Source: Patescibacteria group bacterium | Lineage (GTDB): Bacteria > Patescibacteriota > Minisyncoccia > Portnoybacterales > UBA2143 | DNA length: 45,114 nt | Reading direction: 5' to 3' | Assembly (NCBI GenBank): GCA_018819085.1 | Contig: JAHJQT010000032.1 | Coordinates: forward strand, 1-45,114 | Shown: positions 3,136-17,233 of the stretch, piece after piece | Layout: each line of letters begins with the position of its first letter | Position numbering within the stretch: the stretch's first letter is position 1 | Position numbers and translations under genes: made by a program | The notes under the pieces: model-generated | What the model was told of the DNA's origin: nothing | The model's input: only the letters and a program-made list of their open reading frames with translations | The model's database searches: none

Positions 3136-3138
3136 AAA

Positions 3139-3166
3139 TTGACAAGAAGATAATTAATGTTATAAG
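3139..3166 (+). promoter_or_regulatory. Sigma-70-like promoter: TTGACA-16-TATAAG
   Basis: Near-consensus hexamers upstream of an AAGGAG RBS and the ATG at 3232. Confidence 0.5.
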
Positions 3167-3231
3167 ATTGAGATATAAAAGACAGGGTTGTTCTTTATTA
3201 ATTTTTTCTTTATTTAGACAAGGAGACAAAT

Positions 3232-3627
3232 ATGAAATGGAAGCATAGGAAAATATCTAGATCAGAAGCAGAAAGTCTCCTGAGAGAAAGAGAGAAAGAA
3301 CTTCTCCAAGGGTTATCTCGGTCAACCAAGAATCAACTTCTGAGATTACAAGGAAGGGAGAATTCTTCTCCGCGGGAATTAGGAGTCCACAGGATATTGT
3401 CTCAATTAAATTATGAGGCATGGATTTCCCTACAGGAAGCGAAAAGAACAATTCAAAATGGGGATTGGGGAATTTGCGAATGTGGGAAGCAAATCCCCGA
3501 AGCAAGATTAAGAATCTTCCCTGAAACAGAAATCTGCACGAAGTGCAAATCACTGCACGAAAAAACGGCTCTATTCAAATTGCCTCTGTTCCGCATGGTC
3601 GCCTACTCAGGAATAGGCGCCAGGTAA
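3232..3627 (+). CDS. DksA/TraR family C4 zinc-finger protein
   Basis: CxC-N17-CxxC motif (CECGKQIPEARLRIFPETEICTKC). Strong RBS. Confidence 0.6.
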   Translation: MKWKHRKISRSEAESLLREREKELLQGLSRSTKNQLLRLQGRENSSPRELGVHRILSQLNYEAWISLQEAKRTIQNGDWGICECGKQIPEARLRIFPETEICTKCKSLHEKTALFKLPLFRMVAYSGIGAR

Positions 3628-3711
3628 TATTTTGCATGATGATCGAGCGGGCGTACGCAGCTCTCGAGACACTCGCTCATTAGGCAAGGAAGAAATCCCT
3701 GTCTTGAATTA

Positions 3712-3762
3712 GCCGGAAAGGTATCGCGGAAACAAAAGCGATACCTTCCGGCTTCTTTTTTT
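3712..3762 (+). terminator. Strong intrinsic terminator between convergent genes
   Basis: Stem gccggaaaggtatcgc / gcgataccttccggc of about 15 bp, followed by a T-run. Confidence 0.7.
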
Positions 3763-5329
3763 ATTTCTTCTTTGGAGTTACCCAAAATCCCATATATTTT
3801 CCAATCATTAAGCGTGTTTGAGCTTCTAATCCTGGAATAGCTCCAAAGATAAGAATAGTAAAAGGAACCAAAATCCATTGAATAATCATACCAAAACTTT
3901 TTAAAAATCCTTTAATTCCATCATATTTATCCGGCCGTTTAGGCAAAAGCAAAGTACTATAAATAGCTGAACCGATTAATCCAATCATAGCTATCGTCAT
4001 TAATGTCCTAGTAATCCTTGGGAGATTATATGATAAAAGAGTAATATTAAATTTATCGCCTCCTAAATATAAAGGTAGCCAGCCAAGAAGAAAAATAAGC
4101 AAAGCATTAGTTGCCCAAGACCAAAAACCCTCAAGTTGAATCCATATCCAATGGATTTTTTTTCTTAAATTAATTTTCTTATTTTTATAAAAACCAAAAA
4201 ACAAAAAAGGAATATTTTCAACTCCCCATCCCCAACGCCTTTGTTGAATATAAACATTAAGAGACGTTTTAAAAAAACTATCTGATAAATTGGCATCCAT
4301 AGAAACAGGATAATTTAATGGAATAACTTTATAATCCCCATCATAATAAAGTAAATTCTGCCAAAATATACGAGAATCTTCAGAAACCATATTAACTGGC
4401 CAAAAATCAACTTCATTTAATGCAGTAAAACTCATTGATTGAGAAGAAAAAGTAGAAAGACGTTCTGGTCTTCCTTGTTGAATCATTTGCCAAAAAGTTC
4501 CTGAAGTTGCAACTACTCTAGAAATACAAGGTGCTTGCCAAATATTATTATTATAAACAGGTATAGGTTGATAGCTCGTTCTAGTTGGATTTTTAGTAGT
4601 CAAATAATGATAAGTTAAACAAGAAAAATATTTAGGATAAACTTGAGTATCAATATCAAAACAAGAAACAATAATATTTTCATAAGGAATTTTACCCCGC
4701 TCGGCGGGGTTTACATCTATTAATTCTTTCTTTGCTTGACGAGCTGCCCAAGTTGAATTAGCTCCTTTGCCAGCTAATTCACCAACAATATCTTTTGGAT
4801 GAATTGTAATTAAAAATTTATAAAAACTATCAGAATATTCTTTTTTTATTCTTTCGGCTATTTCTTGCGCAGGTTTTCCAGCTCTTTCTTCGGTCGCTAA
4901 AATAATCATCATCTTATTATTAGGATATTCCGTATCAAGTACCGCTTGAACAGTTTTTTTAACTAATTCATAAGGCTCTTTGTAAATTGGCAGAATTATT
5001 AAATGATAATAATCTTTGTAATCTTTATCTTTAATCGCTCTTAATTTTTCCATCCAGTTAATTCTTATATTATCTTGCATTTGCTTATAACTAATCCTCA
5101 AATGAAAAGATAAATAAACTGTTTTTAAAACCCAATAAACATCAAAAGTGATGATAAAAATTGCTACAAAAGCTGGGCTAATCCAAGATAAAAAAAACAC
5201 TCCCAAAAGAGTGAACCAGGCTAATGCTCCTGGTAAAATTTCAAAAGCCCGATAAATCATTCTTTCTTTCGGACTTTTTAAATCAGTTGCTTTTCCTAAT
5301 TTTAAATAATATTTATCTTTAGAAAGCAT
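3761..5329 (-). CDS. Family-2 glycosyltransferase, processive cellulose-synthase-like membrane GT
   Basis: D-rich GT-A motifs (FDIDTQ), the QxxRW motif (QQRRWGWG), and multiple TM helices. Confidence 0.65.
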   Translation of the reverse strand: MLSKDKYYLKLGKATDLKSPKERMIYRAFEILPGALAWFTLLGVFFLSWISPAFVAIFIITFDVYWVLKTVYLSFHLRISYKQMQDNIRINWMEKLRAIKDKDYKDYYHLIILPIYKEPYELVKKTVQAVLDTEYPNNKMMIILATEERAGKPAQEIAERIKKEYSDSFYKFLITIHPKDIVGELAGKGANSTWAARQAKKELIDVNPAERGKIPYENIIVSCFDIDTQVYPKYFSCLTYHYLTTKNPTRTSYQPIPVYNNNIWQAPCISRVVATSGTFWQMIQQGRPERLSTFSSQSMSFTALNEVDFWPVNMVSEDSRIFWQNLLYYDGDYKVIPLNYPVSMDANLSDSFFKTSLNVYIQQRRWGWGVENIPFLFFGFYKNKKINLRKKIHWIWIQLEGFWSWATNALLIFLLGWLPLYLGGDKFNITLLSYNLPRITRTLMTIAMIGLIGSAIYSTLLLPKRPDKYDGIKGFLKSFGMIIQWILVPFTILIFGAIPGLEAQTRLMIGKYMGFWVTPKKK

Positions 5330-5337
5330 GCTTGTAG

Positions 5338-5412
5338 TCTATTGTATTGAGAATTTGAAAACTATAATTGAAGAAATTCAGAAATGGTGTTTAGTAATTC
5401 CTGAATTAACTA
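5338..5412 (-). repeat. Conserved leader element, family 1, copy a, immediately 5' of the GT2 gene
   Basis: About 85% identical over about 75 nt to 6636..6710. Both copies abut an ATG start. Confidence 0.7.
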
Positions 5413-5433
5413 GACTATAGTTAGTATAGCAAT

Positions 5434-6177
5434 TTAATTTAAACTTTTAAAGTCCTTATCAAGAAACTTTCCTACTACATTATTTACTTCAACAATAATA
5501 TCCTCATGACGCCTATAATCATGCTCTGAATTTAGTTCATGTATAATTTTTGGCTCTAATACTGCTCGATAAGTCGTTTTTACATCTTCTGGCTCAACTA
5601 ATATGTCCTTAGTACCATAAAAAAATAACTTTGGTTTGGAACATTCTTTTAAACCATCGAGTATATTATGTTTAGTTGCATCTTCAAAATAGTTAAGAGG
5701 TAAATCAAATCTTTTTTTATTTTCCATATCATTGGGTGGCATATCTCTATACGATATTTTTACACCATCAGTTAATTTACTCTCATCAAATTCACTTGGA
5801 CCTGCATGAGACATAACCGCTATAATATGAGTCACATATTCGTTACTGGGGCCTGCAAGCATAGCCATACTTCCACCTCTACTGTGTCCCATTAGAATTG
5901 TCGGCTTATTACCAAAAAGATCAATTAATTCATTGATTGCTTTTAGATAATTGGTCATTGTATACAAATCAATACTACCAGGACTTTCCCATGTGCCAGG
6001 AGGATCAAAAGAAAAAGCAAAATATCCTTTATTCGATAGATAATCAACGTGACTAGTCATATGAGCGTAATCTTTTGTATCTAATTGACCTGGTAATAAA
6101 ATAGCAAGCTTAGAAGAAGTCTTATCCCCACGTGAATAGACTGCTAGTTCAAAACTTTTAGTTTTCAATATTTCCAT
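5434..6177 (-). CDS. Alpha/beta-fold hydrolase
   Basis: Nucleophile elbow GHSRGG. The Asp and His are positioned downstream as expected. Confidence 0.6.
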   Translation of the reverse strand: MEILKTKSFELAVYSRGDKTSSKLAILLPGQLDTKDYAHMTSHVDYLSNKGYFAFSFDPPGTWESPGSIDLYTMTNYLKAINELIDLFGNKPTILMGHSRGGSMAMLAGPSNEYVTHIIAVMSHAGPSEFDESKLTDGVKISYRDMPPNDMENKKRFDLPLNYFEDATKHNILDGLKECSKPKLFFYGTKDILVEPEDVKTTYRAVLEPKIIHELNSEHDYRRHEDIIVEVNNVVGKFLDKDFKSLN

Positions 6178-6217
6178 ATTTTAATTTATTAAAAAATATC
6201 ATAAAGAAAAAAATTAA

Positions 6218-6628
6218 TTATAACAATTTTTCTAAATCACAAAGAATATTATCTAAGTCAGAATCTAATATTTTTGCGGTATCAATAAAATTTCCTCTTT
6301 TTTTATTCCAATGAGCTACGAAATTACATCTCTGATCAATAATATATTTAATAATCTCTTCTTTTTTAATAGACTTATAATTAGCATTATTTTTTAATTC
6401 TGTGTTTTCAAATGAAATAGCTCTTGTATCTCTATCAAAAAGATTAGCTACTCTTATAATTAAATAATCCTGTAATATTCTGTTTAGTTTTCCTAATTCG
6501 TTTTCATTGCCAGAAATCACAGGAGTGGTCCATTCCAAAACAAGTTCCGAATTTGTATTTCGTAACATCTTTAAAGCTTCCTTGCAGTTTCTTATTATAT
6601 ATAATAACTGACCAAAATATCCAGTCAT
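6218..6628 (-). CDS. Hypothetical protein, possible HEPN-domain protein
   Basis: C-terminal RCNFVAH fits the Rx4-6H HEPN motif. Co-transcribed with the hydrolase. Confidence 0.3.
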   Translation of the reverse strand: MTGYFGQLLYIIRNCKEALKMLRNTNSELVLEWTTPVISGNENELGKLNRILQDYLIIRVANLFDRDTRAISFENTELKNNANYKSIKKEEIIKYIIDQRCNFVAHWNKKRGNFIDTAKILDSDLDNILCDLEKLL

Positions 6629-6635
6629 ATCACGT

Positions 6636-6710
6636 TCTATTGTATTGAGAATTTAAAAACTATAGTCCAAGAAATCCAGAAATGGCATATAGTAATTCAT
6701 GAGATTACTA
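6636..6710 (-). repeat. Conserved leader element, family 1, copy b, 5' of the HEPN-like gene
   Basis: Aligns with 5338..5412. Confidence 0.7.
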
Positions 6711-6727
6711 CATACAGGAATTGAACG

Positions 6728-7258
6728 TTAATCTTTGTCTTTAGGAATTAATGAAGCCACAGGCCCTACACACAAAAATGAATCGTTCATTTTGTCGCCA
6801 AATTCGAAATCCTTAGATAACACTTTTTTACAGGCCTCAACAAAGTCAAAATAAAAATATTCTATAACAAACACTTTTAACTCTTTTCCATCTGTTTTTA
6901 CATAATCTGGATGTTTCTTATATGGATGTACTCCATAAGGATCATTCTTGTTTTGAGTCACAATTATAGTCCCTGGACCAGACATATGAACCATACCACA
7001 TCTTAAATTAGAATACATCTGCTTTCTCAAATCGTGATAGCGCTCTGGGAACAATTCAATAATAGCATTTTCAAAATGTTTTTTACTAAGTCCAGGCTTT
7101 CTCCATTCACACTTAGAATCTATACATTTCCCTAAAAACTCGATTCCACTACAAACCAATAGAAAAGACATGTAAGGATCAATAAGAATAATTTCTCCTA
7201 ACTTTTCGATAAAGTGCTCTTTGATGAAGTCCTTAGGGTAGATATCCCTTTGTAACAT
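6728..7258 (-). CDS. Hypothetical protein (176 aa)
   Basis: ORF with an ATG. Downstream of the 64-aa gene in the same operon. Confidence 0.4.
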   Translation of the reverse strand: MLQRDIYPKDFIKEHFIEKLGEIILIDPYMSFLLVCSGIEFLGKCIDSKCEWRKPGLSKKHFENAIIELFPERYHDLRKQMYSNLRCGMVHMSGPGTIIVTQNKNDPYGVHPYKKHPDYVKTDGKELKVFVIEYFYFDFVEACKKVLSKDFEFGDKMNDSFLCVGPVASLIPKDKD

Positions 7259-7310
7259 AATATTCTCTTCTTAATTATCCCTACTGCCATTGCAGTTTTA
7301 CAGGAAGCCA

Positions 7311-7505
7311 TTATTTTTTCTTTTTTTTATCAATCTCCTTGGCTTTATTAACTAGATAAGAAGCCACATCCCATGGTTTTTTCTTTGCGACCTTATAATT
7401 ATCTATATTTTTATGGCGGATAAAGAAAATAAGATCGTTAGTTTTTTCTCTTTTTCTATTCCAACCAACAATAAATCCTTCTGATTCTTTAATTTTTTTA
7501 GGCAT
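7311..7505 (-). CDS. Small basic hypothetical protein (64 aa)
   Basis: ORF with a lysine-rich C-terminus. Preceded by the family-2 leader. Confidence 0.35.
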   Translation of the reverse strand: MPKKIKESEGFIVGWNRKREKTNDLIFFIRHKNIDNYKVAKKKPWDVASYLVNKAKEIDKKKKK

Positions 7506-7523
7506 AGATTAATATTTGATCAT

Positions 7524-7582
7524 TTTTATATCCCAAACCTCTCTTTAGAATCAATTCATCTTTAAATTAAATTTAACAAAAA
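7524..7582 (-). repeat. Conserved leader element, family 2, copy a
   Basis: About 85% identical to 8299..8357 (tttttatatYccaaaYctc...agaatcaattca.ctttaRa.taaatttaacaa). Confidence 0.65.
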
Positions 7583-7657
7583 AAAATATAACCAAAAACA
7601 AACTGAAAAACTACTGGCAGGACTCTTAATTTAAGAGTATCTCTTTATGAAAAATAA

Positions 7658-8287
7658 TTACTTCACGATGATTTTTTTTGTCTCTACGCCAAAAATTTCT
7701 CTTAGATGACCATCAACAAGCGTATCGTAAGTATCACATTCTTTAACTAGCTCTTTATTAACTATGTTTGATTCAGATAAACTTAATAAACTGACGTTAC
7801 TACCAAAATCCCTTAAACGTTTACACAGAGGAATAAAATCAGAGTCATTAGTTAACAAAAATAACCTCTCTAATTTACCAGTTGCCGATAACTGCAATGC
7901 GTCACAACATAACTCAGTATCAACCCCTTTTTCACTTTTGCTACACCTATCACGATACTTACTAGGTACAGTCTTCAAAAATTCATCATAACCCTTTGAC
8001 CCCCGTAATTTTCCGCCACAATACTTAAAATAAACATCTCTTATTAATCCTGGTTCTTTAAAATCTGGCAATGACAGATACTCTTCAATACGTGGATCAC
8101 CTTTAGCAAAATAATAAACAGCTCTCTTATACTGTCCGTTATGCAAATCTCTTAAATTAAGTATAAAATGATGGATCAATTTCAAAGGATCTAATTTATG
8201 TTCTTTGAAATTTTCTCTCTTCTTCTGAAGAACATAAATTTGAGAGATTAAAGCAGAACCATCTATAAAAAAATAATTACTAATCAT
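7658..8287 (-). CDS. NYN-domain (LabA/PIN-like) putative ribonuclease
   Basis: Motifs FIDGSAL, KGVDTELCCD and LLTNDSDFIPL. Confidence 0.65.
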   Translation of the reverse strand: MISNYFFIDGSALISQIYVLQKKRENFKEHKLDPLKLIHHFILNLRDLHNGQYKRAVYYFAKGDPRIEEYLSLPDFKEPGLIRDVYFKYCGGKLRGSKGYDEFLKTVPSKYRDRCSKSEKGVDTELCCDALQLSATGKLERLFLLTNDSDFIPLCKRLRDFGSNVSLLSLSESNIVNKELVKECDTYDTLVDGHLREIFGVETKKIIVK

Positions 8288-8298
8288 AATTTAAATTC

Positions 8299-8357
8299 TT
8301 TTTATATTCCAAATCTCAGTCCAGAATCAATTCAGCTTTAGAATAAATTTAACAATA
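8299..8357 (-). repeat. Conserved leader element, family 2, copy b
   Basis: Aligns with 7524..7582. Contains TTGATT-18-TATAAA; the TATAAA ends about 12 nt upstream of the ATG. Confidence 0.65.
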
Positions 8358-8371
8358 CCCTAGATAAAACA

Positions 8372-9316
8372 TCAACTCTTTACTTTTCTAAGATACTTAC
8401 CAAAAACCTTATGAAAATTTTCTGCTGTTACTTGCAACCAAGCAAAATATTCGTCCCATTTATCAGTATCATTGATACTACCCTCTCTTGATAATTTAAT
8501 GCGACTGGCTTTTTTATTTTCCAATGGCATCCATTCTATTTTTTTTGTTCCTAACTCACTCTCTATTTGTTTTTTCTGTATTTCAAGTCCTCTGAAAATT
8601 TCTTTTTTTCTTGGAATATATATTTCACATGACATAACACCACCAAGACTATTAACAGTTAATGCTATATGATAATCAGAACTACCAAGACTAATATCGT
8701 GCCAATGTCGAGGTCTGGGACTCCTTAATTTTAAATTAGTCCCATTTTGTTTTGCAAATTCATTAAATTTATCCCAAAAATTAAGTTGTTCAACTTTAGT
8801 GTCAGTTAAATTTGATTTTCCTGAAGATTGTTTTATTGCTTTCGCCCAATCATTTGGTTTGGCAATAATTTGAAATTTAGGTGCAAAAGGTGAATCAGCT
8901 ATTTGCCATAATTCCATCTTAATAGCAAAAAAGTTTATTTCTTCATCCGTATGTTCATTAAGCCAGTTAATAGCTTGTTTGTGTTCATCTCTTACATCTT
9001 TAACTATCCAAATAATTATTTCTGCATCATATCCTGAAGCATAAGTTATTATCTTACCAAGATGATCGTGATCAGTCGCTTCTAATTGATTCTCAATGAT
9101 AATCTTTCTACCAGTATTTTCTTCTTCTGCTAATATATCAACACTAAATTTACCAACACTAGCTTCGGTTTGTATTAAAGTTAAATCAATGCCTATTTCA
9201 TCACTCAATAAAGATAAGTTTTCATCTTCAGATAACCAATTAGTAAAATCAGTAGCTTCGTGATTCCACGCTTTTCGTAAATCGATTTGTTTTATTTTAG
9301 ATAAATTTTGTGACAT
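8372..9316 (-). CDS. DUF4268-family protein, possible PD-(D/E)xK nuclease fold
   Basis: N-terminus WNHEATDFTNWL...VGKFSVDILAEE...IIENQLEATDHDHLGKIITYA is typical of DUF4268. Confidence 0.55.
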   Translation of the reverse strand: MSQNLSKIKQIDLRKAWNHEATDFTNWLSEDENLSLLSDEIGIDLTLIQTEASVGKFSVDILAEEENTGRKIIIENQLEATDHDHLGKIITYASGYDAEIIIWIVKDVRDEHKQAINWLNEHTDEEINFFAIKMELWQIADSPFAPKFQIIAKPNDWAKAIKQSSGKSNLTDTKVEQLNFWDKFNEFAKQNGTNLKLRSPRPRHWHDISLGSSDYHIALTVNSLGGVMSCEIYIPRKKEIFRGLEIQKKQIESELGTKKIEWMPLENKKASRIKLSREGSINDTDKWDEYFAWLQVTAENFHKVFGKYLRKVKS

Positions 9317-9491: not shown

Positions 9492-12383
9492 CTATGCTAA
9501 AATATCTAAATTCCTTAAGTTACTTTCAATAAGAGTAATCTCTTCTTGCATTTTATTATCTTTTTTATAATCTTTTTGAATTTTCTTATATGCATACATT
9601 ATTGTTGTATGATCGCGCTTAAAAATATTACCAATAACAGGAAAAGAACTTTTAAGATGTTTTCTAATTAGATACATTGAAATTTGCCGCGGATATGCAA
9701 ATTCTTTTTTTCTAGAAATACTTTTAATTTCATTTTCCTTAATACTGTAAAAATCTGCGACTCCCTCTATAATCTTATCAGTAGATACATCAAGAGATTT
9801 TTCAAAACGATCGATATAATCTATAATTTTTATATTTCTTTTGCCTTTTTTACCTTCAAATATAGATGATTCTTCTTTAGGAATATCGTTAATAGTAATT
9901 ATTTCATCATCTCCGTATAACTTCGGCAAAGCGCTATTTATTATTTGTCGGACTCTTTCTCGACTTATTTTATATTTAAGAGATATTTCTTCTAATGTAT
10001 GTTTTCGATTTTCGTTTATGCCAAACTTCATTTCAACTATTTCTTTAAGCCTACCCCCAAGCACATCTATACGAGATACTAAAACATTTGCGTCATTTGT
10101 TTCTATATTACGATTAATAATATTTATATAGTCTTGGTGTAATGGTTTGTCTACGAACATTTCATATATAATTGCTCCAATTTCTAATTTTTTCATTATT
10201 ATATGCCCTGAAATATCAGTATGCGCATCATCAGTTTTTTGTCCAAGATTACCATTATTATATGCCTCTGCTACTGAAAGATTAAGAAATTCATCTAAAA
10301 TCAATTCTGCAAGATATAACTGCATAATAATTGATTTTTCTACATCAGACATTTTTGGATCTTCTCCAAAATAAATTTTGTTAATTGGATTTTTTCTATT
10401 TATAATTATAAATCCTGCCTCTTCTCCGAATTGCGCTCGAGCTTTTTGAATTTGCTCTGGCATATCTCTGAATTTCCAACCACGAAAAATTCCGGCGTCT
10501 TTGCCTTGCGGTGGTATCCTATTTTTATCATGGACATAAATTTTCGCATTACATTGATAATTATTCGATATCGCGATGACATTACCATTTTCATTACTTT
10601 TTTGACCTATAAAACCAATTGGTATCATTGCATTATTAGATTTACTGATTTTTTCTTTAGGAACTTTTACTTTTTTATCTAATAATATAATCGATGAGTT
10701 ATCAGATTCTAAATTAATAACTTCAGCAGTTTTTACTTTTTCTAAATCAACAAACAAATATAGTTTACTTTTCCTATTAGTTACTACAGAAAGTTCATTT
10801 GGATAAAATTCTATACCATTTTGAGGATAGAACAAATCACTTTGTATCACAGATACGAAACAAACAGCTTGAGATTCTTCACAAGTAGCAGTTATCTTAC
10901 CAACTGCATTCAAGGTGTTGGATTTAATTTTTATATGTTTTGAAATTATGCCATCCCTATTCGCATCCTCTTTTTTAAGAATAATTGTATCCGGTGTAAC
11001 TGAAATTTGTTTTTCATTACAAAGTAGAAACACTTTTGCATTTTGAGAAAAATCATCGATATTTATTTTAAGCTGTAAATAATATTGTTTATCAACTGTT
11101 ATTTTTATATTTTCTCTAGCAAACATTAACTCATTAATTTTTCTTGAATCTGGATTATCAAATGTTCCACCACTTTTTTCGCCAACAAGATCGGAATATA
11201 TCTTATTTAATTTTTTAAATACTTCTGAATGTCGTTTTTTTGTTTCTTCTGATAAATCACTTGCATCTTCTTCAGAATTTTTAAATTCATCAAATATTGG
11301 ATACAATAAATCTTTAACTTTATTAGAAAAATATTTATAAAACAGTTGAGATTTATCAAAACCATTTCTAGTATCAGTTAATATTTCTTCAGGAATCTCC
11401 TCATTAAGTTTTTCGTCAATAATTTCACGTGCATTAGTTAATTTTATATAACCAAAAATATTATTAGCCCCTAAATTTTTTTCAAATCCAAAAAAATCTA
11501 AATCATATACTGAATTATCATAATTAGCATCGTAAACCAATATTTTATTTGCATTCTCGCCAATTTTTTGTACCAAATCAAACTTAGCTTTATATAAACA
11601 AATATCTATTTCAACTGGCTTGAATTCTTCATACGGTTTAAAATATAACTTTTTGTCTAAAATCTTAGAAACATCGTTTGAATATAATTTTTCTACAAAT
11701 TTATATTCTATTTTTTTAGACACAGGATTTTTTTTGTTTTCAGTTTCAATTAATGTAATATTTCTATCAGGATTACTGTTAATAAATCGAAGCATGTATG
11801 AATCCGAAAGTCCTCTAAAAAGATTTTGAAACTCTGGCAAGTTAATTTTTTTAAAAGAAGGAAGCTCGAATTCTATAACTGTCCCATTTTTTTTAATATT
11901 ATACTTTTGTCTATATTTTTTTAATTCCTTTTTACTTAATCTATTGTGAGAATAAATTTGATCATCTTCTTTATAATAAAACGAGCAAATATATAATTCA
12001 TCGTCTTTTATTGAATAAAGATTACTTGTTGAAGATGGATTTAAAAACAAAACATCAGTCAATCCCTGACCATAGAGACCTCTTCCATCATGTCCTTTCT
12101 TCGATCCACTTTTAATTGCGCCGTATTTCCCAAAATTTTCTTCTATATCTTTTTGATTCATACCTTCCGCATAATCGATAACTCGAATAACTCTAGTTCT
12201 TCTATCTATATATATTTCAATACTCTTAATATAATCTATATTTATACCTTTCTTTTCTAATCGATTATAACTTTCATCAGAATTAGTTATAAGTTCAGTA
12301 AAGATTTTGTATATATCTCGTAGCGCTTTACCATGTCTTCTACTGGCAAATCTTTTTGAATTTTTTATTATGTGTTCTGGCAT
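9492..12383 (-). CDS. Large multidomain protein: N-terminal GHKL (Bergerat-fold) ATPase, then sigma-70 region 4-like HTH, then a C-terminal DnaA domain IV-like DNA-binding domain
   Basis: GHKL motifs: N-box ELITNSDESY, G1 VIDYAEGM, G2 GRGLYGQGL. FGINENRKHTLEEISLKYKISRERVRQIINSALPKL resembles sigma-70 regions 4.1/4.2. PRQISMYLIRKHL...IGNIFKRDHTTIMYAYKKI resembles DnaA domain IV. Confidence 0.6.
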   Translation of the reverse strand: MPEHIIKNSKRFASRRHGKALRDIYKIFTELITNSDESYNRLEKKGINIDYIKSIEIYIDRRTRVIRVIDYAEGMNQKDIEENFGKYGAIKSGSKKGHDGRGLYGQGLTDVLFLNPSSTSNLYSIKDDELYICSFYYKEDDQIYSHNRLSKKELKKYRQKYNIKKNGTVIEFELPSFKKINLPEFQNLFRGLSDSYMLRFINSNPDRNITLIETENKKNPVSKKIEYKFVEKLYSNDVSKILDKKLYFKPYEEFKPVEIDICLYKAKFDLVQKIGENANKILVYDANYDNSVYDLDFFGFEKNLGANNIFGYIKLTNAREIIDEKLNEEIPEEILTDTRNGFDKSQLFYKYFSNKVKDLLYPIFDEFKNSEEDASDLSEETKKRHSEVFKKLNKIYSDLVGEKSGGTFDNPDSRKINELMFARENIKITVDKQYYLQLKINIDDFSQNAKVFLLCNEKQISVTPDTIILKKEDANRDGIISKHIKIKSNTLNAVGKITATCEESQAVCFVSVIQSDLFYPQNGIEFYPNELSVVTNRKSKLYLFVDLEKVKTAEVINLESDNSSIILLDKKVKVPKEKISKSNNAMIPIGFIGQKSNENGNVIAISNNYQCNAKIYVHDKNRIPPQGKDAGIFRGWKFRDMPEQIQKARAQFGEEAGFIIINRKNPINKIYFGEDPKMSDVEKSIIMQLYLAELILDEFLNLSVAEAYNNGNLGQKTDDAHTDISGHIIMKKLEIGAIIYEMFVDKPLHQDYINIINRNIETNDANVLVSRIDVLGGRLKEIVEMKFGINENRKHTLEEISLKYKISRERVRQIINSALPKLYGDDEIITINDIPKEESSIFEGKKGKRNIKIIDYIDRFEKSLDVSTDKIIEGVADFYSIKENEIKSISRKKEFAYPRQISMYLIRKHLKSSFPVIGNIFKRDHTTIMYAYKKIQKDYKKDNKMQEEITLIESNLRNLDILA

Positions 12384-12387
12384 AATT

Positions 12388-13023
12388 TTAAAACTTTAAT
12401 AATTCAATAATATAATTCATAAAAGACAAAGCTTCTGTATTTTTTGTATTTTTACAAATATCTTTTAATTTTAAAATGCGTTTCTTAATTACTTCCTTTC
12501 TTGTAAAGGACATAACTCCTAAAAAAGAGAATATTTCAAACTCATTTATGCTTTCTTTATTTTCTTGCCATTTCTTAAATAAATTCGAATTTATTATTTC
12601 GTCTACATCGCCCTCAATTGATTTTATTCTTTTAGATTCGTTCTTTTTAGCTAAAACTTTTTTTTGTAGATTTGGGTTATTCAACATTTTTTTTGTCTCT
12701 TTCGCTACTTCTTTTCCTAATGTTGTAATTGAAAAATTAGTTCTAATATTTCCAACAGCCCAATTTCTATCAGTTGGTCTTAAATGCAATCTTAGTAAAT
12801 TAGAGATTCTATATAAATCAGGATATTCTTTGAATGTAATTAATGAAAACCTCTTAGGAAAAAATTTAAACATCGCTATGCCAATATATTCAAAATACAA
12901 TGGTATTCTTTTTTCTTCTAAAAAATACATAGTAAAAATCGCCAATTTATCTTGCGTAATATTTTCATATTGGTTTTCTTGAAAAGGATTAAGTTCTTTT
13001 ACAAATTTTTTATAAGCATCCAT
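12388..13023 (-). CDS. Hypothetical protein (211 aa), operon partner of the GHKL fusion
   Basis: ATG ORF with a 4-nt gap to the downstream gene. Confidence 0.4.
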   Translation of the reverse strand: MDAYKKFVKELNPFQENQYENITQDKLAIFTMYFLEEKRIPLYFEYIGIAMFKFFPKRFSLITFKEYPDLYRISNLLRLHLRPTDRNWAVGNIRTNFSITTLGKEVAKETKKMLNNPNLQKKVLAKKNESKRIKSIEGDVDEIINSNLFKKWQENKESINEFEIFSFLGVMSFTRKEVIKKRILKLKDICKNTKNTEALSFMNYIIELLKF

Positions 13024-13024
13024 A

Positions 13025-13252
13025 TTATAATTTAAATTCCTTATTTTTAGGAAAATGAAACTTTGATTTAGTTTCTTTTACTTTACGCTCAATTTCTGAA
13101 AAAATTTTATTTATCTCTTCTTCTTTATAACTATAAGCACTTCTATTAGAGCAATTACCAAGAACTTTAATTCTTTTCAGAACTTCATTTGTCCGATAAG
13201 TTGCTAATTTTTTGAATCTTTCTCTTTTAATCTCTTGATTTTGTTTGGTCAT
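13025..13252 (-). CDS. Small hypothetical protein. The ORF could extend to 13303 (92 aa); the MTKQNQ start is preferred on promoter spacing.
   Basis: 1-nt gap to the next gene. TTGTAT-17-TTATAT lies upstream. Confidence 0.3.
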   Translation of the reverse strand: MTKQNQEIKRERFKKLATYRTNEVLKRIKVLGNCSNRSAYSYKEEEINKIFSEIERKVKETKSKFHFPKNKEFKL

Positions 13253-13584
13253 ATTTTTAATATGTATATAATAAATACTATCACTATAATACAAGGATAT
13301 CATATCCTTATATTATTTGTCAATACCTTAGCTGTAGATAAAAAATATAAATAAATTTCATATAAAAAATACAATTGATCCTATCTTTCACCTAGACATG
13401 ATGCACTTAGTCTATACTTGTCCGTATTAAGACGTTAATATATAGAGTAATAGAAACTATTAGAAATTGATTATTACATCGTACACGCACATTTAGAACG
13501 TTCTATATGAGGAGGGGGTGTCTTCTAGATTTCCATGGCAGTAACGTACAGACGTAAGTTATTAATAAATGTTATACTGAATCT

Positions 13585-14346
13585 ATGGATAAAAATGAAA
13601 TAATCAAACAAATTCAAGATTTAAAGGCCATTACAGATGATTTAGAATCTGTGATAGTTAAGCTTATAAAAATTGATTCGGATAAGATAATTGATAGACA
13701 TTCTAATCACATTAAAAATCTAGAAGTTAAAAAACTCAAACAGGAACAATATCAAATTAAAAGAGGATATAGAATATTAATAAAAAAAATTAAAATACAA
13801 TTTGAGTTTTTACTTAAAAAATTAGATATTCGTAAGAAAATTAAAATTATCCCAGAATGGGCATTAGATGCAGACAACATTTTCGTGATTTGTTATACAC
13901 AAACTAACGAGCATGGCGATATGAATTATGATCTATCAGAATTATTCGATGTTCCTAAAAAGATAAAATCATATTTAATACAGCTTAATAAATATACAAA
14001 TAAAAAATTTAAAGAAAATAAAAAATATCCCCAGAAAGTTCCAAAAAATACTACTCCTTTAATTTTGTTTGATTCAAAAACTGGCATAGGTAGTGTTAAT
14101 GGATCTAAATTTGAGTTTCGTATCGGAAACAAGCCATACATATTTTTTAAAGAACTTTATAAAAATATAAACAAACCAATCCAAAGAAAGAAAGCACTAG
14201 AGTTAATAAATTTAATTGATTTAAGTGGAACAGAACAAGCAAAGCGATTGAATCGTTTTATTACAAGATTAAGACGAGAACTTGGACTAAATGCGAATCA
14301 TTTAATATTAAAACACAGTATAACCTTAAAAGGCGTAAAAAAGTGA
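13585..14346 (+). CDS. Hypothetical protein (253 aa), first gene of the integrative-element-like module
   Basis: ATG ORF with a strong terminator downstream. Confidence 0.4.
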   Translation: MDKNEIIKQIQDLKAITDDLESVIVKLIKIDSDKIIDRHSNHIKNLEVKKLKQEQYQIKRGYRILIKKIKIQFEFLLKKLDIRKKIKIIPEWALDADNIFVICYTQTNEHGDMNYDLSELFDVPKKIKSYLIQLNKYTNKKFKENKKYPQKVPKNTTPLILFDSKTGIGSVNGSKFEFRIGNKPYIFFKELYKNINKPIQRKKALELINLIDLSGTEQAKRLNRFITRLRRELGLNANHLILKHSITLKGVKK

Positions 14347-14397
14347 TATCAACAGTTGACCTATAGTTAGTCTAATTTATCAGAAGTTAAAATCATG

Positions 14398-14426
14398 ACA
14401 AGCTTAATACATAAGCTTGTTTTTTA
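14398..14426 (+). terminator. Intrinsic terminator
   Basis: Stem acaagctt / aagcttgt with a 7-nt loop, followed by TTTTTT. Confidence 0.65.
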
Positions 14427-14523
14427 ATTTTCTAATAAAAATATGACTATAACCAATCAACCGAGAGGGCCGCCACAATAGAATGGTTGTTCCTTAATTA
14501 ATAATTAAAATTAATAAAAAAAT

Positions 14524-14844
14524 ATGATAACAAAAGAACAATATAAAGAAATCTACGATAAATTTATTACCAGCTCACAAACCAAAGAAGACGTCTATAT
14601 GTTAATGCTTGGAATTGGCATCAACTGGAACAAAGTCAGAAAAATTATGAATCATCTTTATCCTTGGTTCTGGGATGATAATTGTATAGCTATTATAAAA
14701 ACACTTTTCAGAGATGACATAATAATCAAAGAACAATATATATTAGGAATTATTCGAAATTGGCTTTATCAAGCATGGCGAAATGATAAATATGAATTCA
14801 AAAATAAATGGTCTGAATCATCAATTAAAGAATTATTTTTATAA
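14524..14844 (+). CDS. Hypothetical protein (106 aa)
   Basis: ATG ORF. Confidence 0.35.
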   Translation: MITKEQYKEIYDKFITSSQTKEDVYMLMLGIGINWNKVRKIMNHLYPWFWDDNCIAIIKTLFRDDIIIKEQYILGIIRNWLYQAWRNDKYEFKNKWSESSIKELFL

Positions 14845-14849
14845 AAAAC

Positions 14850-15455
14850 ATGAGTGAAAAGCAAGGATGGATAAAATTATATAGAAAACTACTACATGAT
14901 CCAATTTTTACAAGCGACAAAGGACTAAAAATTTGGATCTGGTGTTTATTAAGAGCAAATCACAAAAATACTGAGATATTTTTAGGAAGACAAAGAATAA
15001 TACTTAAACAAGGACAATTTGTATTTGGACGTTACACAGCGAGTGAGGAGTTAAAAATATCACCATCAACAACTTGGTTCTGGATAAAAAAATTAAAGAA
15101 CGACGATTATATTGACATCAAACCAACTAATAAATTCAGTATTGTAACAATCAAAAAATGGAAAGAGTATCAAACATTATTAACAACAAATGAAAAACAA
15201 GTGAACACAGACAATAATGATAATAATGTAAATAATATTGATGAAGCTGCGCTTCAAGAAATTAATTATATGAAGAAGCAGCTTCTCAATATTGGAGTAA
15301 GACCTAAACTCGTAAATGAAATGAATAAACAAAAAGAGTTTTGGAGAGCAAAGAAAAACATTATTCGTAAATGTTTAATAAATAAAGAAATCGAAGATAA
15401 AGCAGCTTATATTGCTAAGATCTATTATTTCTGGAAAGAGAATGAAGCTAAATGA
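14850..15455 (+). CDS. Possible replication-initiator or replisome-organizer-like winged-helix protein
   Basis: N-terminal GWIKLYRKLLHDPIF...IWIWCLLRANH pattern resembles what I recall of plasmid/phage replication-initiator N-terminal regions. The C-terminus is basic. Confidence 0.3.
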   Translation: MSEKQGWIKLYRKLLHDPIFTSDKGLKIWIWCLLRANHKNTEIFLGRQRIILKQGQFVFGRYTASEELKISPSTTWFWIKKLKNDDYIDIKPTNKFSIVTIKKWKEYQTLLTTNEKQVNTDNNDNNVNNIDEAALQEINYMKKQLLNIGVRPKLVNEMNKQKEFWRAKKNIIRKCLINKEIEDKAAYIAKIYYFWKENEAK

Positions 15456-15664
15456 CAGGGGTTATAAACATTTGCATACTATCATACAATGCTCATGTCC
15501 TGCCTCTGAAAATTAAAAAAATGATTACAGTTGCAGAATTTAAAAAACTACATAATACAAAAACATTAGAATTAACTGATGAAGAAATAGAAGCAGTGAT
15601 TAATTTACTGTATCAATTAAGCGATCTATTATTTGAAATTTGGATCGAAGAAAAAAATAAATGA
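15452..15664 (+). CDS. Small hypothetical protein. An internal start MITVAEF at about 15521 is possible.
   Basis: Overlaps the neighbouring genes by 4 nt, so it may be translationally coupled. Confidence 0.3.
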   Translation: MTGVINICILSYNAHVLPLKIKKMITVAEFKKLHNTKTLELTDEEIEAVINLLYQLSDLLFEIWIEEKNK

Positions 15665-17199
15665 AATTAAACAGCGAATTACAAACAGGAATTATTTATT
15701 ATCGAGTTAGCACCGAAGATCAAGCTGAACATGGTGCTAGTTTAATGTACCAAAAAAGAAACTGTTCTGAATTTGCTGAAAAAAATAATATTAATGTCTT
15801 AAGACTATTTCATGACGATGGCGTCTCAGCAAAAACAACGAATAGAGCTGATTTGCAAGACATGCTCAAATACTGCAACAAAAACCATAAAAAGATTGAC
15901 TGCCTAATAGTCTATAAAATTGATCGACTCTCTAGAAATGTTAATGACTATACAAATATTCTGATCTTTTTAAATAAATTACAAATAAAACTAGTTTCTA
16001 CCACAGAATCAATAGATGATACGCCCACAGGTAAATTTATCGGCAACGTAATGGCTGCCTCTGCTCAATTTGATAATGACTTGAGAAGCGAGAGAGTTTC
16101 TTCTTGCATGATGGAGAGAGTAAGACAAGGACAATGGTGTTGGAAAGCTCCTCTTGGCTATTTAAATAGAGCAAACGAATATAGCCAAAAAATAGTTGTT
16201 CTAGATAAAGAAAAAAGCCGTTTCGTTAAACTAGCTTTTGAAAAATTCGCTACCGAACTTTATATTTTAGAAGACATTAGAAAATTAATTAATAAGAGAG
16301 GACTTAAAAACAATAGCGATAATGAAATTTCCTCTCAATTAATGCATAAAATTATAACTAATCCATTTTACTGTGGTGTGCTAAAAGTCAAAGGAGATTT
16401 ATACAAAGGAAAACATGAAAAAATAATTAGTGAAGAAACTTTTGATAAGTGCCAATCATTATTAAAAAGAAGCAATAGAGGAGAAAATATCTCAAGAAGA
16501 AGAACTAATGTTGATTTTCCTCTAAGAAATTTTGCAATCTGCTCTGTTTGTGAGCGTCCATTGACTGCTGCTTTCTCAACAGGTCATCGAGGTGGTAAAT
16601 ATCCATATTATCGTTGCTATAATAAATATTGTTCAGCTAAAAAATCTATTAATCAACAAAGTGTTGAAAATGACTTTTTAGAACTTTTAAAACAAATCAC
16701 TCCCAAGAGAGAATATTTAGATATATTTAAACCAATTGTAATTGATGTTTGGAACAAAAATTATAATGATCTTAATAAACGACGAAATGATATAATGAAA
16801 AAAATTGAGAAATTAAATAAAGAAAAAGAAAAATTAATTGATATGAAAAAGAAAGAATTGTTACCTGATGAAGATTTTAAAGAAGCATTCGAAGAAATAA
16901 AAGAGAAAATACGAAAAGAGATAATCTTAAGCGAAACCAGAATTGAACAATTCAATCCAACTGAAGCGATTAACTATGTATTCAACTTTATTACAAATAT
17001 ACCTGAGTTTTGGAAGAAAGCTGATTGCCAACAAAAAATTCGTTTACAGAGTTTAATTTTCACTGAAAAGCCCATTTATACCTATCCAAAGTTTGGAACC
17101 CCCAAAATTTGTTTAATCTTACAGCAAAAAACGCCTATCGCGAACGATAGGCATCTCATGGTAGCCCTACGGGGAGTCGAACCCCGGTTGCCAGATTGA
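15661..17199 (+). CDS. Large serine recombinase (integrase)
   Basis: Resolvase N-terminal domain with the catalytic Ser in YYRVSTEDQ, a recombinase domain, a zinc ribbon (CSVCERP...YYRC) and a coiled coil. The 3' end reads into tRNA-Glu. Confidence 0.8.
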   Translation: MKLNSELQTGIIYYRVSTEDQAEHGASLMYQKRNCSEFAEKNNINVLRLFHDDGVSAKTTNRADLQDMLKYCNKNHKKIDCLIVYKIDRLSRNVNDYTNILIFLNKLQIKLVSTTESIDDTPTGKFIGNVMAASAQFDNDLRSERVSSCMMERVRQGQWCWKAPLGYLNRANEYSQKIVVLDKEKSRFVKLAFEKFATELYILEDIRKLINKRGLKNNSDNEISSQLMHKIITNPFYCGVLKVKGDLYKGKHEKIISEETFDKCQSLLKRSNRGENISRRRTNVDFPLRNFAICSVCERPLTAAFSTGHRGGKYPYYRCYNKYCSAKKSINQQSVENDFLELLKQITPKREYLDIFKPIVIDVWNKNYNDLNKRRNDIMKKIEKLNKEKEKLIDMKKKELLPDEDFKEAFEEIKEKIRKEIILSETRIEQFNPTEAINYVFNFITNIPEFWKKADCQQKIRLQSLIFTEKPIYTYPKFGTPKICLILQQKTPIANDRHLMVALRGVEPRLPD

Positions 17200-17233
17200 A
17201 AATCTGACGTCCTAACCATTAGACGATAGGGCC
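17159..17233 (-). tRNA. tRNA-Glu, anticodon UUC, encoded CCA
   Basis: Manual fold: acceptor ggcccta/tagggct, anticodon stem tcaga/tctgg, loop ttTTCaa, T-loop ttcgact. Confidence 0.7.

Follow-up and report, generated by a model that had tools for sequence, protein, structure and literature searches.

A defence-type accessory island of predicted nucleases in a tRNA-Glu-linked variable region of a Patescibacteria genome

Patescibacteria are ultra-small bacteria with genomes of roughly 1 Mb, commonly portrayed as having little classical immunity. Genes that act in conflicts with phages and mobile elements belong to several described families. HEPN RNases are recognised by an Rx4-6H motif located where helix 3 ends or in the next loop, and no fewer than 16 HEPN clades have links to restriction-modification (R-M) systems (PMC3710099). 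They include RNases embedded in R-M operons, such as PrrC within EcoprrI, the toxins of HEPN-MNT toxin-antitoxin (TA) systems (PDB 7ae2, 5yep, 8xdj), and the AbiU2 HEPN family (PF18734; Lactococcus AbiU; Anantharaman et al. 2013). The DUF4268-containing protein MdgA is a modification-dependent anti-phage nuclease, which is inactive as the E77A mutant (Cell Host Microbe 2025, PMC12366544). Genomic and defence islands next to tRNA genes, and the genomic islands reported from Patescibacteria (PMC12455944), combine variable content and conserved flanks with a tRNA anchor, a site-specific recombinase and a slightly lower G+C content.

The window analysed here is a stretch of 45,114 nt from a Patescibacteria group bacterium (GCA_018819085.1, contig JAHJQT010000032.1, forward strand). 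A minus-strand block at positions 5434-9316 carries six ORFs that do not overlap and are separated in the ORF listing by gaps of 40-152 nt (Table 1). All six had been called at these positions in the first-pass annotation, and every motif quoted there (RCNFVAH, GHSRGG, FIDGSAL...LLTNDSDF and ENQLEATDHDHLGKIITYA) was found in the translations. Four of the six genes are predicted from their sequences to encode nucleases of kinds used against phages. We regard the block as an ordinary accessory island of defence type and not as a new kind of system; as judged from sequence, it is probably a mosaic in which independent modules of one or two genes mostly encode predicted nucleases for conflicts with phages and mobile elements, and it forms the inner part of a larger variable region.

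Table 1. Features of the variable region and its anchors (positions in the window)
Feature	Position	Strand	Remarks
522-aa membrane-protein gene, conserved	3761-5329	-	Left anchor of variable region
Repeat A, copy 1	5338-5412	-	Directly upstream of 522-aa gene
Alpha/beta-fold hydrolase, 247 aa	5434-6177	-	GHSRGG nucleophile elbow; Abhydrolase_1
AbiU2-like family HEPN protein, 136 aa	6218-6628	-	Rx5H motif (RCNFVAH)
Repeat A, copy 2	6636-6710	-	Conserved 5' region directly upstream of 136-aa start codon
HEPN-like predicted RNase, 176 aa	6728-7258	-	Family without Pfam model
Lysine-rich orphan ORF, 64 aa	7311-7505	-	Upstream of 176-aa gene
Repeat B, copy 1	7523-7579	-	Upstream of 64-aa ORF
NYN nuclease (LabA/DUF88-type, PIN-like), 209 aa	7658-8287	-	Pfam PF01936
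Repeat B, copy 2	8299-8355	-	Upstream of NYN gene; TTGATT-N18-TATAAA
PD-(D/E)xK-like nuclease (N-terminal) and DUF4268 (C-terminal), 314 aa	8372-9316	-	PADLOC PDC-S11
Tightly packed three-gene operon, 92, 211 and 963 aa	9492-13303	-	
Four small genes and 512-aa large serine recombinase (15661-17199)	13585-17199	+	Resolvase, Recombinase, Zn_ribbon_recom
tRNA-Glu(UUC)	17159-17233	-	Right anchor of variable region; ARAGORN; Rfam 64.7 bits

The locus varies between sister species

The variable region measures 11.8 kb and lies between the 522-aa gene and tRNA-Glu/tsaD. Sister species retain recG, the 522-aa gene, tRNA-Glu, tsaD and valS, while the genes between the 522-aa gene and tRNA-Glu are wholly different. 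In locus L008 (recG 82% identical at the amino acid level), the order is recG, dksA, a 517-aa gene, three unrelated genes, tRNA-Glu, tsaD and valS; in locus L007 (recG 85%), recG and the 517-aa gene are followed by a MazG-like gene, an uncharacterised gene, and a C5 methyltransferase fused to LexA, paired with a type II restriction enzyme. The 522-aa gene keeps its position in both, with 86-88% amino acid identity, and is 58% identical in L011. None of the six block genes occurs in L007 or L008, though both flanks are kept at 76-88% amino acid identity, and homology to L008 restarts exactly at the 3' end of tRNA-Glu. The pairing of tRNA-Glu with tsaD is found in L008, L034, L036 and L041 as well, and farther relatives (tsaD 56-57% identical) carry biosynthetic or cell-wall genes beside tRNA-Glu. 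Conserved flanks enclose differing content when L007, L008 and L034 are compared with the window, as expected of a hotspot; the recovered copies of the block are all from one population (99-100% identity), so that the comparison is one between species.

The first-pass annotation had suspected such variability, and the absence of the block from L007 and L008 agrees with it. It had also placed the block between recG/dksA and tsaD/valS, next to an integrase. The core genes are indeed there, but the 522-aa gene sits between dksA and the block, and tRNA-Glu intervenes between the recombinase and tsaD. The integrase exists as a large serine recombinase, but it lies 6.3 kb from the block, beyond the 92/211/963-aa operon and four small genes. 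The locus resembles the tRNA-adjacent islands described above in each of the features listed, except that its recombinase is of the large serine type. As such enzymes leave no long direct repeats at the ends, the element boundaries cannot be fixed.

Predicted nucleases and their gene partners

PADLOC found no validated defence system in the window; its matches were the PDC-S11 candidate together with weak NYN and MzaA-domain matches. That the block lacks housekeeping genes held up, as profile searches led to conflict-type families (PDC-S11, NYN, AbiU2-like HEPN and the HEPN-like 176-aa family). In the 314-aa protein, residues 1-311 align with positions 1-314 of the 318 in profile PDLC04911 (PDC-S11, E 4e-124), listed in PADLOC as a candidate single-gene system only. 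The DUF4268 identity proposed earlier was borne out by a Pfam match (PF14088, E 6.9e-31) of 107.6 bits against a curated threshold of 27, and PHROGs returned phrog_27742 (E 1.7e-62). Like PDC-S11 proteins, it is a single protein of about 310 aa whose N-terminal part holds a nuclease-like motif (D60, E75-x-Q77) and whose C-terminal part is DUF4268, the domain also present in MdgA and MdgB (PMC12366544). An alignment of five sequences covering four bacterial phyla and one archaeon shows no variation at E51, D60, E75, N76, Q77, D82, H83 and H85. Of the four plasmid homologues examined, three have R-M genes of type I or II as neighbours, in line with the likeness to MdgA/MdgB-type nucleases, and the remaining one adjoins a GIY-YIG nuclease. 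The putative tie to the validated MdgA runs through the DUF4268 domain, with PDC-S11 itself being a candidate.

The 209-aa protein had been described as a NYN/PIN-like RNase, and this is sustained both by its match to Pfam NYN PF01936 (E 8.5e-12, 46.2 bits, curated cut-off 24.2) and by intact acidic catalytic residues, with D9, G10, E119, D123, N147, D148 and D150 invariant among 16 homologues. In these respects it is like the LabA/DUF88 NYN proteins; unlike them, it has no known partner domain, and a defence role is putative for the subfamily. The 115 homologues at 37-63% identity, which include Alphaproteobacteria, Acidobacteria and metagenomic contigs, indicate a patchy, transferred distribution. 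A 111-aa gene upstream of the alphaproteobacterial homologues is missing in the window. One plasmid homologue is surrounded by TA, Fic, HipA and type I R-M genes. Another homologue directly follows dnaA-dnaN, a core context that counts against the defence reading.

For the 136-aa ORF, which NCBI annotates as 116 aa, we preferred the longer start because the family alignment conserves residues 8-22. Of 45 family sequences, every one (100%) has H106 and at least 90% have R100, the two residues forming an Rx5H motif, and a helix at 91-104 is followed by a loop that holds H106, in agreement with the HEPN topology. The protein itself scored 11.2 bits (E 0.26) against HEPN_AbiU2 (PF18734), below the gathering threshold of 26.8 bits, and P0002 scored 19.6 bits. 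Nevertheless, 31 of the 45 relatives match this model at E<=0.01 (best 1.1e-8), so we place the protein in a family related to HEPN_AbiU2 and not as a proven member, which supports the HEPN-like nature claimed earlier. It shares with AbiU2 HEPN proteins a conserved R-x5-H where helix 3 ends and, as predicted, an all-helical bundle; it differs in length (136 aa against a 193-position model) and in lacking a Sel1-repeat or R-M partner, being followed instead by the hydrolase gene, 40 nt downstream. Its closest homologue lies three genes from tsaD and adjoins HicA, a sign, like the position of the closest 176-aa homologue (below), that the hotspot recurs. The hydrolase belongs to a generic family without a defence link (Abhydrolase_1, E 2.3e-11, 44.3 bits, cut-off 25.8; phrog_789 esterase/lipase, E 5e-10; no PADLOC match). 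A functional HEPN-hydrolase unit is not supported, as the hydrolase gene is beside neither of the two AbiU2-like homologues examined.

The 176-aa protein has no model in Pfam, NCBIfam, PADLOC or PHROG. In 27 family sequences E40, R86 and H91 are invariant, and K44 is present in at least 90%. E40 falls in helix 28-46 and R86 closes helix 72-86, with H91 located in the loop, so that an Rx4-6H motif is combined with an upstream acidic Ex3[KR] in helix 2, as in HEPN proteins. Compared with R-M-embedded HEPN RNases and HEPN-MNT toxins, it has a beta-rich insert after its Rx4H; it lacks the ABC-ATPase domain of PrrC and the MNT partner of the toxins, its family is without a Pfam model, and no R-M genes are near it in the window. 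Three of seven other homologue contexts are in or beside type III R-M operons: in two lineages the gene separates Mod from Res, and a third has it downstream of the Mod-Res pair. Another homologue is cargo of a serine-recombinase element with Rep and RelB/ParE (L025/L026). The gene for the closest homologue (62% identity, L034) begins, in another species, 15 nt beyond a tRNA-Glu that diverges from tsaD; a gene pair comes next, one member Phd-like (Pfam E 0.021, sub-threshold) and the other RelE-like (recognised by eye, no Pfam match). A 64-aa ORF lies 52 nt upstream of the window gene and has no match in Pfam, NCBIfam, PADLOC or PHROGs. The two had been described as arranged like a TA pair, but a type II pair is not supported: tblastn found no 64-aa relatives near 176-aa homologues in any of the seven contexts, and the closest homologue has the tRNA upstream in place of the 64-aa gene.

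Origin and possible role of the block

Beyond the block, the 963-aa protein combines a GHKL-type ATPase N-terminus (HATPase_c_3, E 1.1e-4, below cut-off) with sigma-70 region 4 (Sigma70_r4, E 9e-10) and DnaA domain IV (Bac_DnaA_C, E 2.7e-25). Its PDB sequence matches are restricted to the two HTH domains, and no full-length relative was found in metagenome, viral or plasmid searches. The plus-strand genes that follow probably serve a small integrative element as its integration module, with the 3' end of the recombinase ORF overlapping tRNA-Glu. The segment at 9.4-17.2 kb looks like a later insertion of such an element at the 3' end of tRNA-Glu, the order of insertion being what we infer. It is possible, but rather doubtful, that the whole of 5.4-17.2 kb is instead one integrative element, with the six genes as cargo of the serine recombinase and not an older island invaded later. 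The recombinase abuts tRNA-Glu, sister genomes lack everything between it and the 522-aa gene, and a 176-aa homologue is already cargo of the L025/L026 element; however, the recombinase of that element and the window's own share only 29% identity. The G+C content differs, being about 0.30 in the block and 0.24-0.28 over most of 9-15 kb (a weak signal), and in L034 the 176-aa homologue adjoins tRNA-Glu directly, and the 2.2 kb available there hold no recombinase. Neither an att repeat nor a tRNA fragment was found at the left end of such an element. Repeat A, 75 nt long with copies 84% identical, also argues against a single element, as it is found both in the promoter region native to the 522-aa gene and in L007, where a third copy (8400-8521) lies upstream of the MazG-like gene. 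It has no Rfam match and no covariation support for an RNA structure. Repeat B (57 nt, 84% identical) contains promoter-like hexamers, read directly from the sequence. An integron-like cassette array using these repeats as recombination sites is highly improbable and effectively refuted: the only recombinase is of the serine type and no IntI-type tyrosine recombinase is present; each family has two copies, directly upstream of start codons and not downstream of cassettes; the repeats show no conserved hairpin or covariation (covariation term +2.2) such as a structured attC would have; and the promoter-like hexamers of repeat B speak against it as well.

As to function, the HEPN and NYN genes could be addiction or toxin modules, or remnants of these, that stabilise the locus or the neighbouring element and have no role in phage defence. 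Homologues adjoin classical type II TA pairs (ParE/Phd, RelB/ParE, HicA), and the best structural matches of both HEPN families are toxins of HEPN-MNT systems. We nevertheless consider this unlikely, given that the block has no MNT or other recognisable antitoxin, that the candidate 64-aa partner is not conserved and three contexts are R-M operons, and that the DUF4268 nuclease does not suit a TA role. A collection of ordinary accessory genes, for RNA metabolism and esterases, gathered where recombination is frequent and free of any conflict function, would account for the NYN homologue after dnaA-dnaN, the generic hydrolase and the metabolic genes beside tRNA-Glu in distant relatives. This is quite improbable, however, since the PDC-S11 match points to conflict functions, as do the homologues embedded among R-M genes and the type II R-M system that L007 has at the same spot.

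In the mosaic that we favour, each module would have its own short upstream region. The PDC-S11 protein would most likely be a single-protein restriction nuclease, type IV-like, directed against invading DNA; the NYN protein would be a stand-alone RNase; the AbiU2-like HEPN RNase with the downstream esterase-type hydrolase, and the 176-aa HEPN-like RNase preceded by the 64-aa orphan, would each make up one module. If they resemble characterised HEPN systems, the HEPN proteins would remain latent as metal-independent endoRNases until activation and would then cleave RNA of the host or the phage. Anti-phage activity of the block and its triggers are putative; what the sequences show directly is the gene content, the families, the intact catalytic motifs and the variable locus. 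More speculatively, and with considerable doubt, the 176-aa protein may represent an unannotated HEPN clade at home between type III mod and res, a PrrC-like latent RNase restrained by the R-M complex and freed once a phage has knocked out restriction. On this view, two copies, that of the window and the one located 15 nt from tRNA-Glu in a related species, would be "escaped", R-M-independent versions, the former possibly restrained by the basic 64-aa orphan.

Two proteins annotated as hypothetical gain a better annotation, both as HEPN-type, although the practical gain is modest, and the 176-aa family is a candidate R-M-associated HEPN family that deserves a Pfam model. A 4-kb cluster of four predicted conflict nucleases shows that even such small genomes keep a turnover site for these genes, in this case a tRNA-Glu/tsaD-linked hotspot at which a sister species has a type II R-M system. 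Being defined, this hotspot could be mined throughout the clade.

Gene content of the block and its variable setting

As the first-pass annotation had described, six non-overlapping ORFs lie on the minus strand between positions 5434 and 9316, and all of the motifs quoted there were found in their translations. Three of the ORFs passed curated Pfam thresholds (Abhydrolase_1, NYN and DUF4268). Besides showing this domain content, the genes of the block are accessory, keep their catalytic motifs intact and have neighbourhoods of conflict type that recur. Five other assemblies also carry the block, 99-100% identical, and the segment that runs from dksA into the beginning of the DUF4268 gene (3136-8699) is 100% identical in two assemblies of the same population, L003 and L004, with the exception of a frameshift in the NYN gene (8267). 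G+C content is about 30% throughout the window, being slightly lower between 9.4 and 17.2 kb.

Coordinates of the features in the window and in the compared loci
Feature	Sequence	Positions	Strand	Remarks
Hydrolase	window	5434-6177	-	generic GxSxG esterase-type enzyme
136-aa AbiU2-like HEPN protein	window	6218-6628	-
176-aa HEPN-like protein	window	6728-7258	-
64-aa ORF	window	7311-7505	-
NYN domain protein, 209 aa	window	7658-8287	-	Pfam
314-aa DUF4268 protein	window	8372-9316	-	PADLOC PDC-S11, full length, E 4e-124; phrog_27742
963-aa gene	window	9492-12383	-	last of three-gene operon
211-aa gene	window	12388-13023	-
92-aa gene	window	13025-13303	-
Serine recombinase ORF and tRNA-Glu	window	15661-17233
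Repeat A, two copies	window	5338-5412; 6636-6710	-	75 nt, 84% identical
Repeat A, third copy	L007	8400-8521		upstream of unrelated gene
Repeat B, two copies	window	7523-7579; 8299-8355	-	57 nt, 84% identical
T7 homopolymer	window	8261-8267		NYN codons 5-7
111-aa gene	L032; L033	1444-1779; 4663-4998		2 nt upstream of NYN homologue
tsaD-linked HEPN loci	L034; L027	805-1991; 111-2817
mod/res, split versus intact	L018 vs L019	3461-4998 + 5506-7769 vs 3463-4998 + 5545-7770

A RecG scan of the genome collection retrieved two sister species (loci L007 and L008), neither of which carries the block. In L008, recG, dksA and a 517-aa gene (86% identical) are followed by three genes (encoding 250 aa, a 695-aa GHL15/FG-GAP protein and a 344-aa DnaA-like protein), tRNA-Glu, tsaD and valS. 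In L007, recG and a 517-aa gene (88% identical) precede four genes, which encode a 228-aa MazG-like protein, a 276-aa protein, a LexA-fused C5 methyltransferase and a type II restriction enzyme. Nucleotide homology ends 8 nt upstream of the start codon of the 522-aa gene and restarts exactly at the tRNA-Glu 3' end; therefore, the whole region from 5.4 to 17.2 kb is variable, and the six genes are unshared. The presence of conflict-type families and the absence of all six genes from the sister loci support the original interpretation of defence-type gene content at a variable site. In more distant relatives, whose tsaD is 56-57% identical, tRNA-Glu is still paired with tsaD, and biosynthetic or cell-wall genes lie alongside.

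HEPN proteins and their neighbourhoods

Both HEPN proteins would be latent, metal-independent endoRNases. Their nearest homologues adjoin tsaD in two other Patescibacteria contigs, one of them directly after tRNA-Glu, and are accompanied by Phd/RelE-like or HicA genes. The vicinity of tsaD and tRNA-Glu may be a hotspot that recurs in this clade. Searching plasmids by tblastn with either protein gave no match, and a Foldseek search of the PDB with a model of the 176-aa protein gave no significant one.

The 176-aa homologues were compared in seven independent contexts. Two homologues are flanked by type III Mod and Res in unrelated neighbourhoods, and another is two genes downstream of Mod-Res; one each adjoins ParE/Phd, comes after an HNH gene, or is carried as cargo, along with RelB/ParE, by a serine-recombinase/Rep element. 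The closest homologue (62% identity) starts 15 nt past a tRNA-Glu; the tsaD from which this tRNA gene diverges is 68% identical to that of the window. Downstream of the homologue comes a Phd-like/RelE-like pair, in which the Phd assignment is below threshold (Pfam E 0.021) and the 82-aa partner, RelE-like by eye, has no Pfam match. By analogy with PrrC, an HEPN RNase encoded inside an R-M operon (PMC3710099), members of this family might act together with type III R-M systems, an analogy drawn from that precedent and from gene position within such operons. In some assemblies, mod and res of these operons are broken into two ORFs, while both are intact in another; frameshifts (phase-variable forms) or faulty assembly could account for the broken versions.

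Two pairings proposed earlier found no support. None of the searches returned a relative of the 64-aa ORF, and none of the seven contexts contains one, leaving a toxin-antitoxin pair with the 176-aa protein unsupported; nor was any other conserved partner found across these contexts. Likewise, a hydrolase gene is absent from both of the 136-aa homologue contexts examined (L027 and L028), leaving an HEPN-hydrolase unit unsupported. The genes upstream in these two contigs resemble neither one another nor the hydrolase, so that no conserved partner of the AbiU2-like protein emerged; its closest homologue lies in a run of genes for 442 aa, HEPN, 113 aa, HicA and tsaD.

NYN and DUF4268 proteins

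Residues D9, D123, D148 and D150 are invariant in 16 homologues of the NYN protein, which would be an Mg-dependent RNase. Its 115 homologues (37-63% identity) include proteins from Alphaproteobacteria, Acidobacteria and metagenomic contigs, and their contexts are mixed: one follows dnaA-dnaN, one is paired with a caspase-like protease among transposases, and another is surrounded by TA, Fic, HipA and type I R-M genes in the accessory part of a plasmid. In the alphaproteobacterial cases, a conserved 111-aa gene, which has no Pfam family and is absent from the window, is found immediately upstream. In L003 and L004, one base is added to the T7 homopolymer, shifting the frame of the NYN N-terminus with loss of the invariant D9; this difference could stem from phase variation or from misassembly of the homopolymer.

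PDC-S11, the PADLOC family matched by the 314-aa protein, is a candidate single-gene system. An alignment with plasmid homologues from Deinococcus, Marinitoga, Agrobacterium and the archaeon Haladaptatus showed E51, D60, E75-N-Q77 and D82-H83-x-H85 to be invariant. R-M genes (type I or type II) adjoin three of these four homologues, and a GIY-YIG nuclease gene adjoins that of Haladaptatus. DUF4268 has been found together with GmrSD type IV enzymes (PMC4619093) and also occurs in the metagenomic MdgA and MdgB, which protect E. coli against T4 and not against T4-GT7, MdgA being inactivated by E77A (PMC12366544). The 314-aa protein has the DUF4268 domain described for MdgA and MdgB. As a single polypeptide, it would most likely restrict foreign, possibly modified, DNA. 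PDB sequence searches with the NYN and DUF4268 proteins gave no match.

Repeats, the right-hand segment and element boundaries

Repeat B precedes both the 64-aa ORF and the NYN gene and holds TTGATT-N18-TATAAA, a sequence arrangement suggesting duplicated promoters that drive separate modules. A scan for consensus promoters and terminators gave counts equal to the shuffled expectation. Two different window genes have repeat A immediately before their start codons, and the repeat acts like a transferable 5' regulatory region at the point of insertion; RNA-structure support for it was sought and not found, and tRNA was the sole Rfam match in 5-17.4 kb. An integron/cassette reading of the intergenic repeats was rejected, the repeats showing neither a conserved hairpin nor covariation.

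At its right-hand end (9.4-17.2 kb, 7.8 kb), the variable region consists of a tight 92/211/963-aa operon and a group made up of four small genes with a large serine recombinase. The 963-aa protein has a GHKL-type ATPase N-terminus (HATPase_c_3, sub-threshold), sigma-70 region 4 (E 9e-10) and DnaA domain IV (E 2.7e-25). Metagenome, viral and plasmid scans gave no full-length relatives, the plasmid matches being to separate sigma-4 and DnaA-IV domains. The 344-aa DnaA-like gene of L008 occupies the equivalent spot.

Lying on opposite strands, the final 41 nt of the recombinase ORF and the tRNA-Glu 3' end overlap, so that the junction of integration probably falls within the tRNA gene or at its end. 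No direct repeat or tRNA fragment (up to 3 mismatches) marking a left end was found; serine recombinases are expected to leave no direct repeat at the ends. Aligning the tRNA flank with L008 gave similarity limited to the tRNA, which is uninformative on att. The whole variable stretch might be a single element, although we consider this rather unlikely. A later arrival of the recombinase element, inserted so as to separate tRNA-Glu from an older island, is favoured because the closest 176-aa homologue abuts its tRNA directly, and because repeat A of the block is common to the native 522-aa upstream region and L007.

The block is an ordinary defence-type island, of a kind already documented in the Patescibacteria lineage (PMC12455944). 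It provides better annotations for two proteins and a candidate HEPN family associated with R-M systems.
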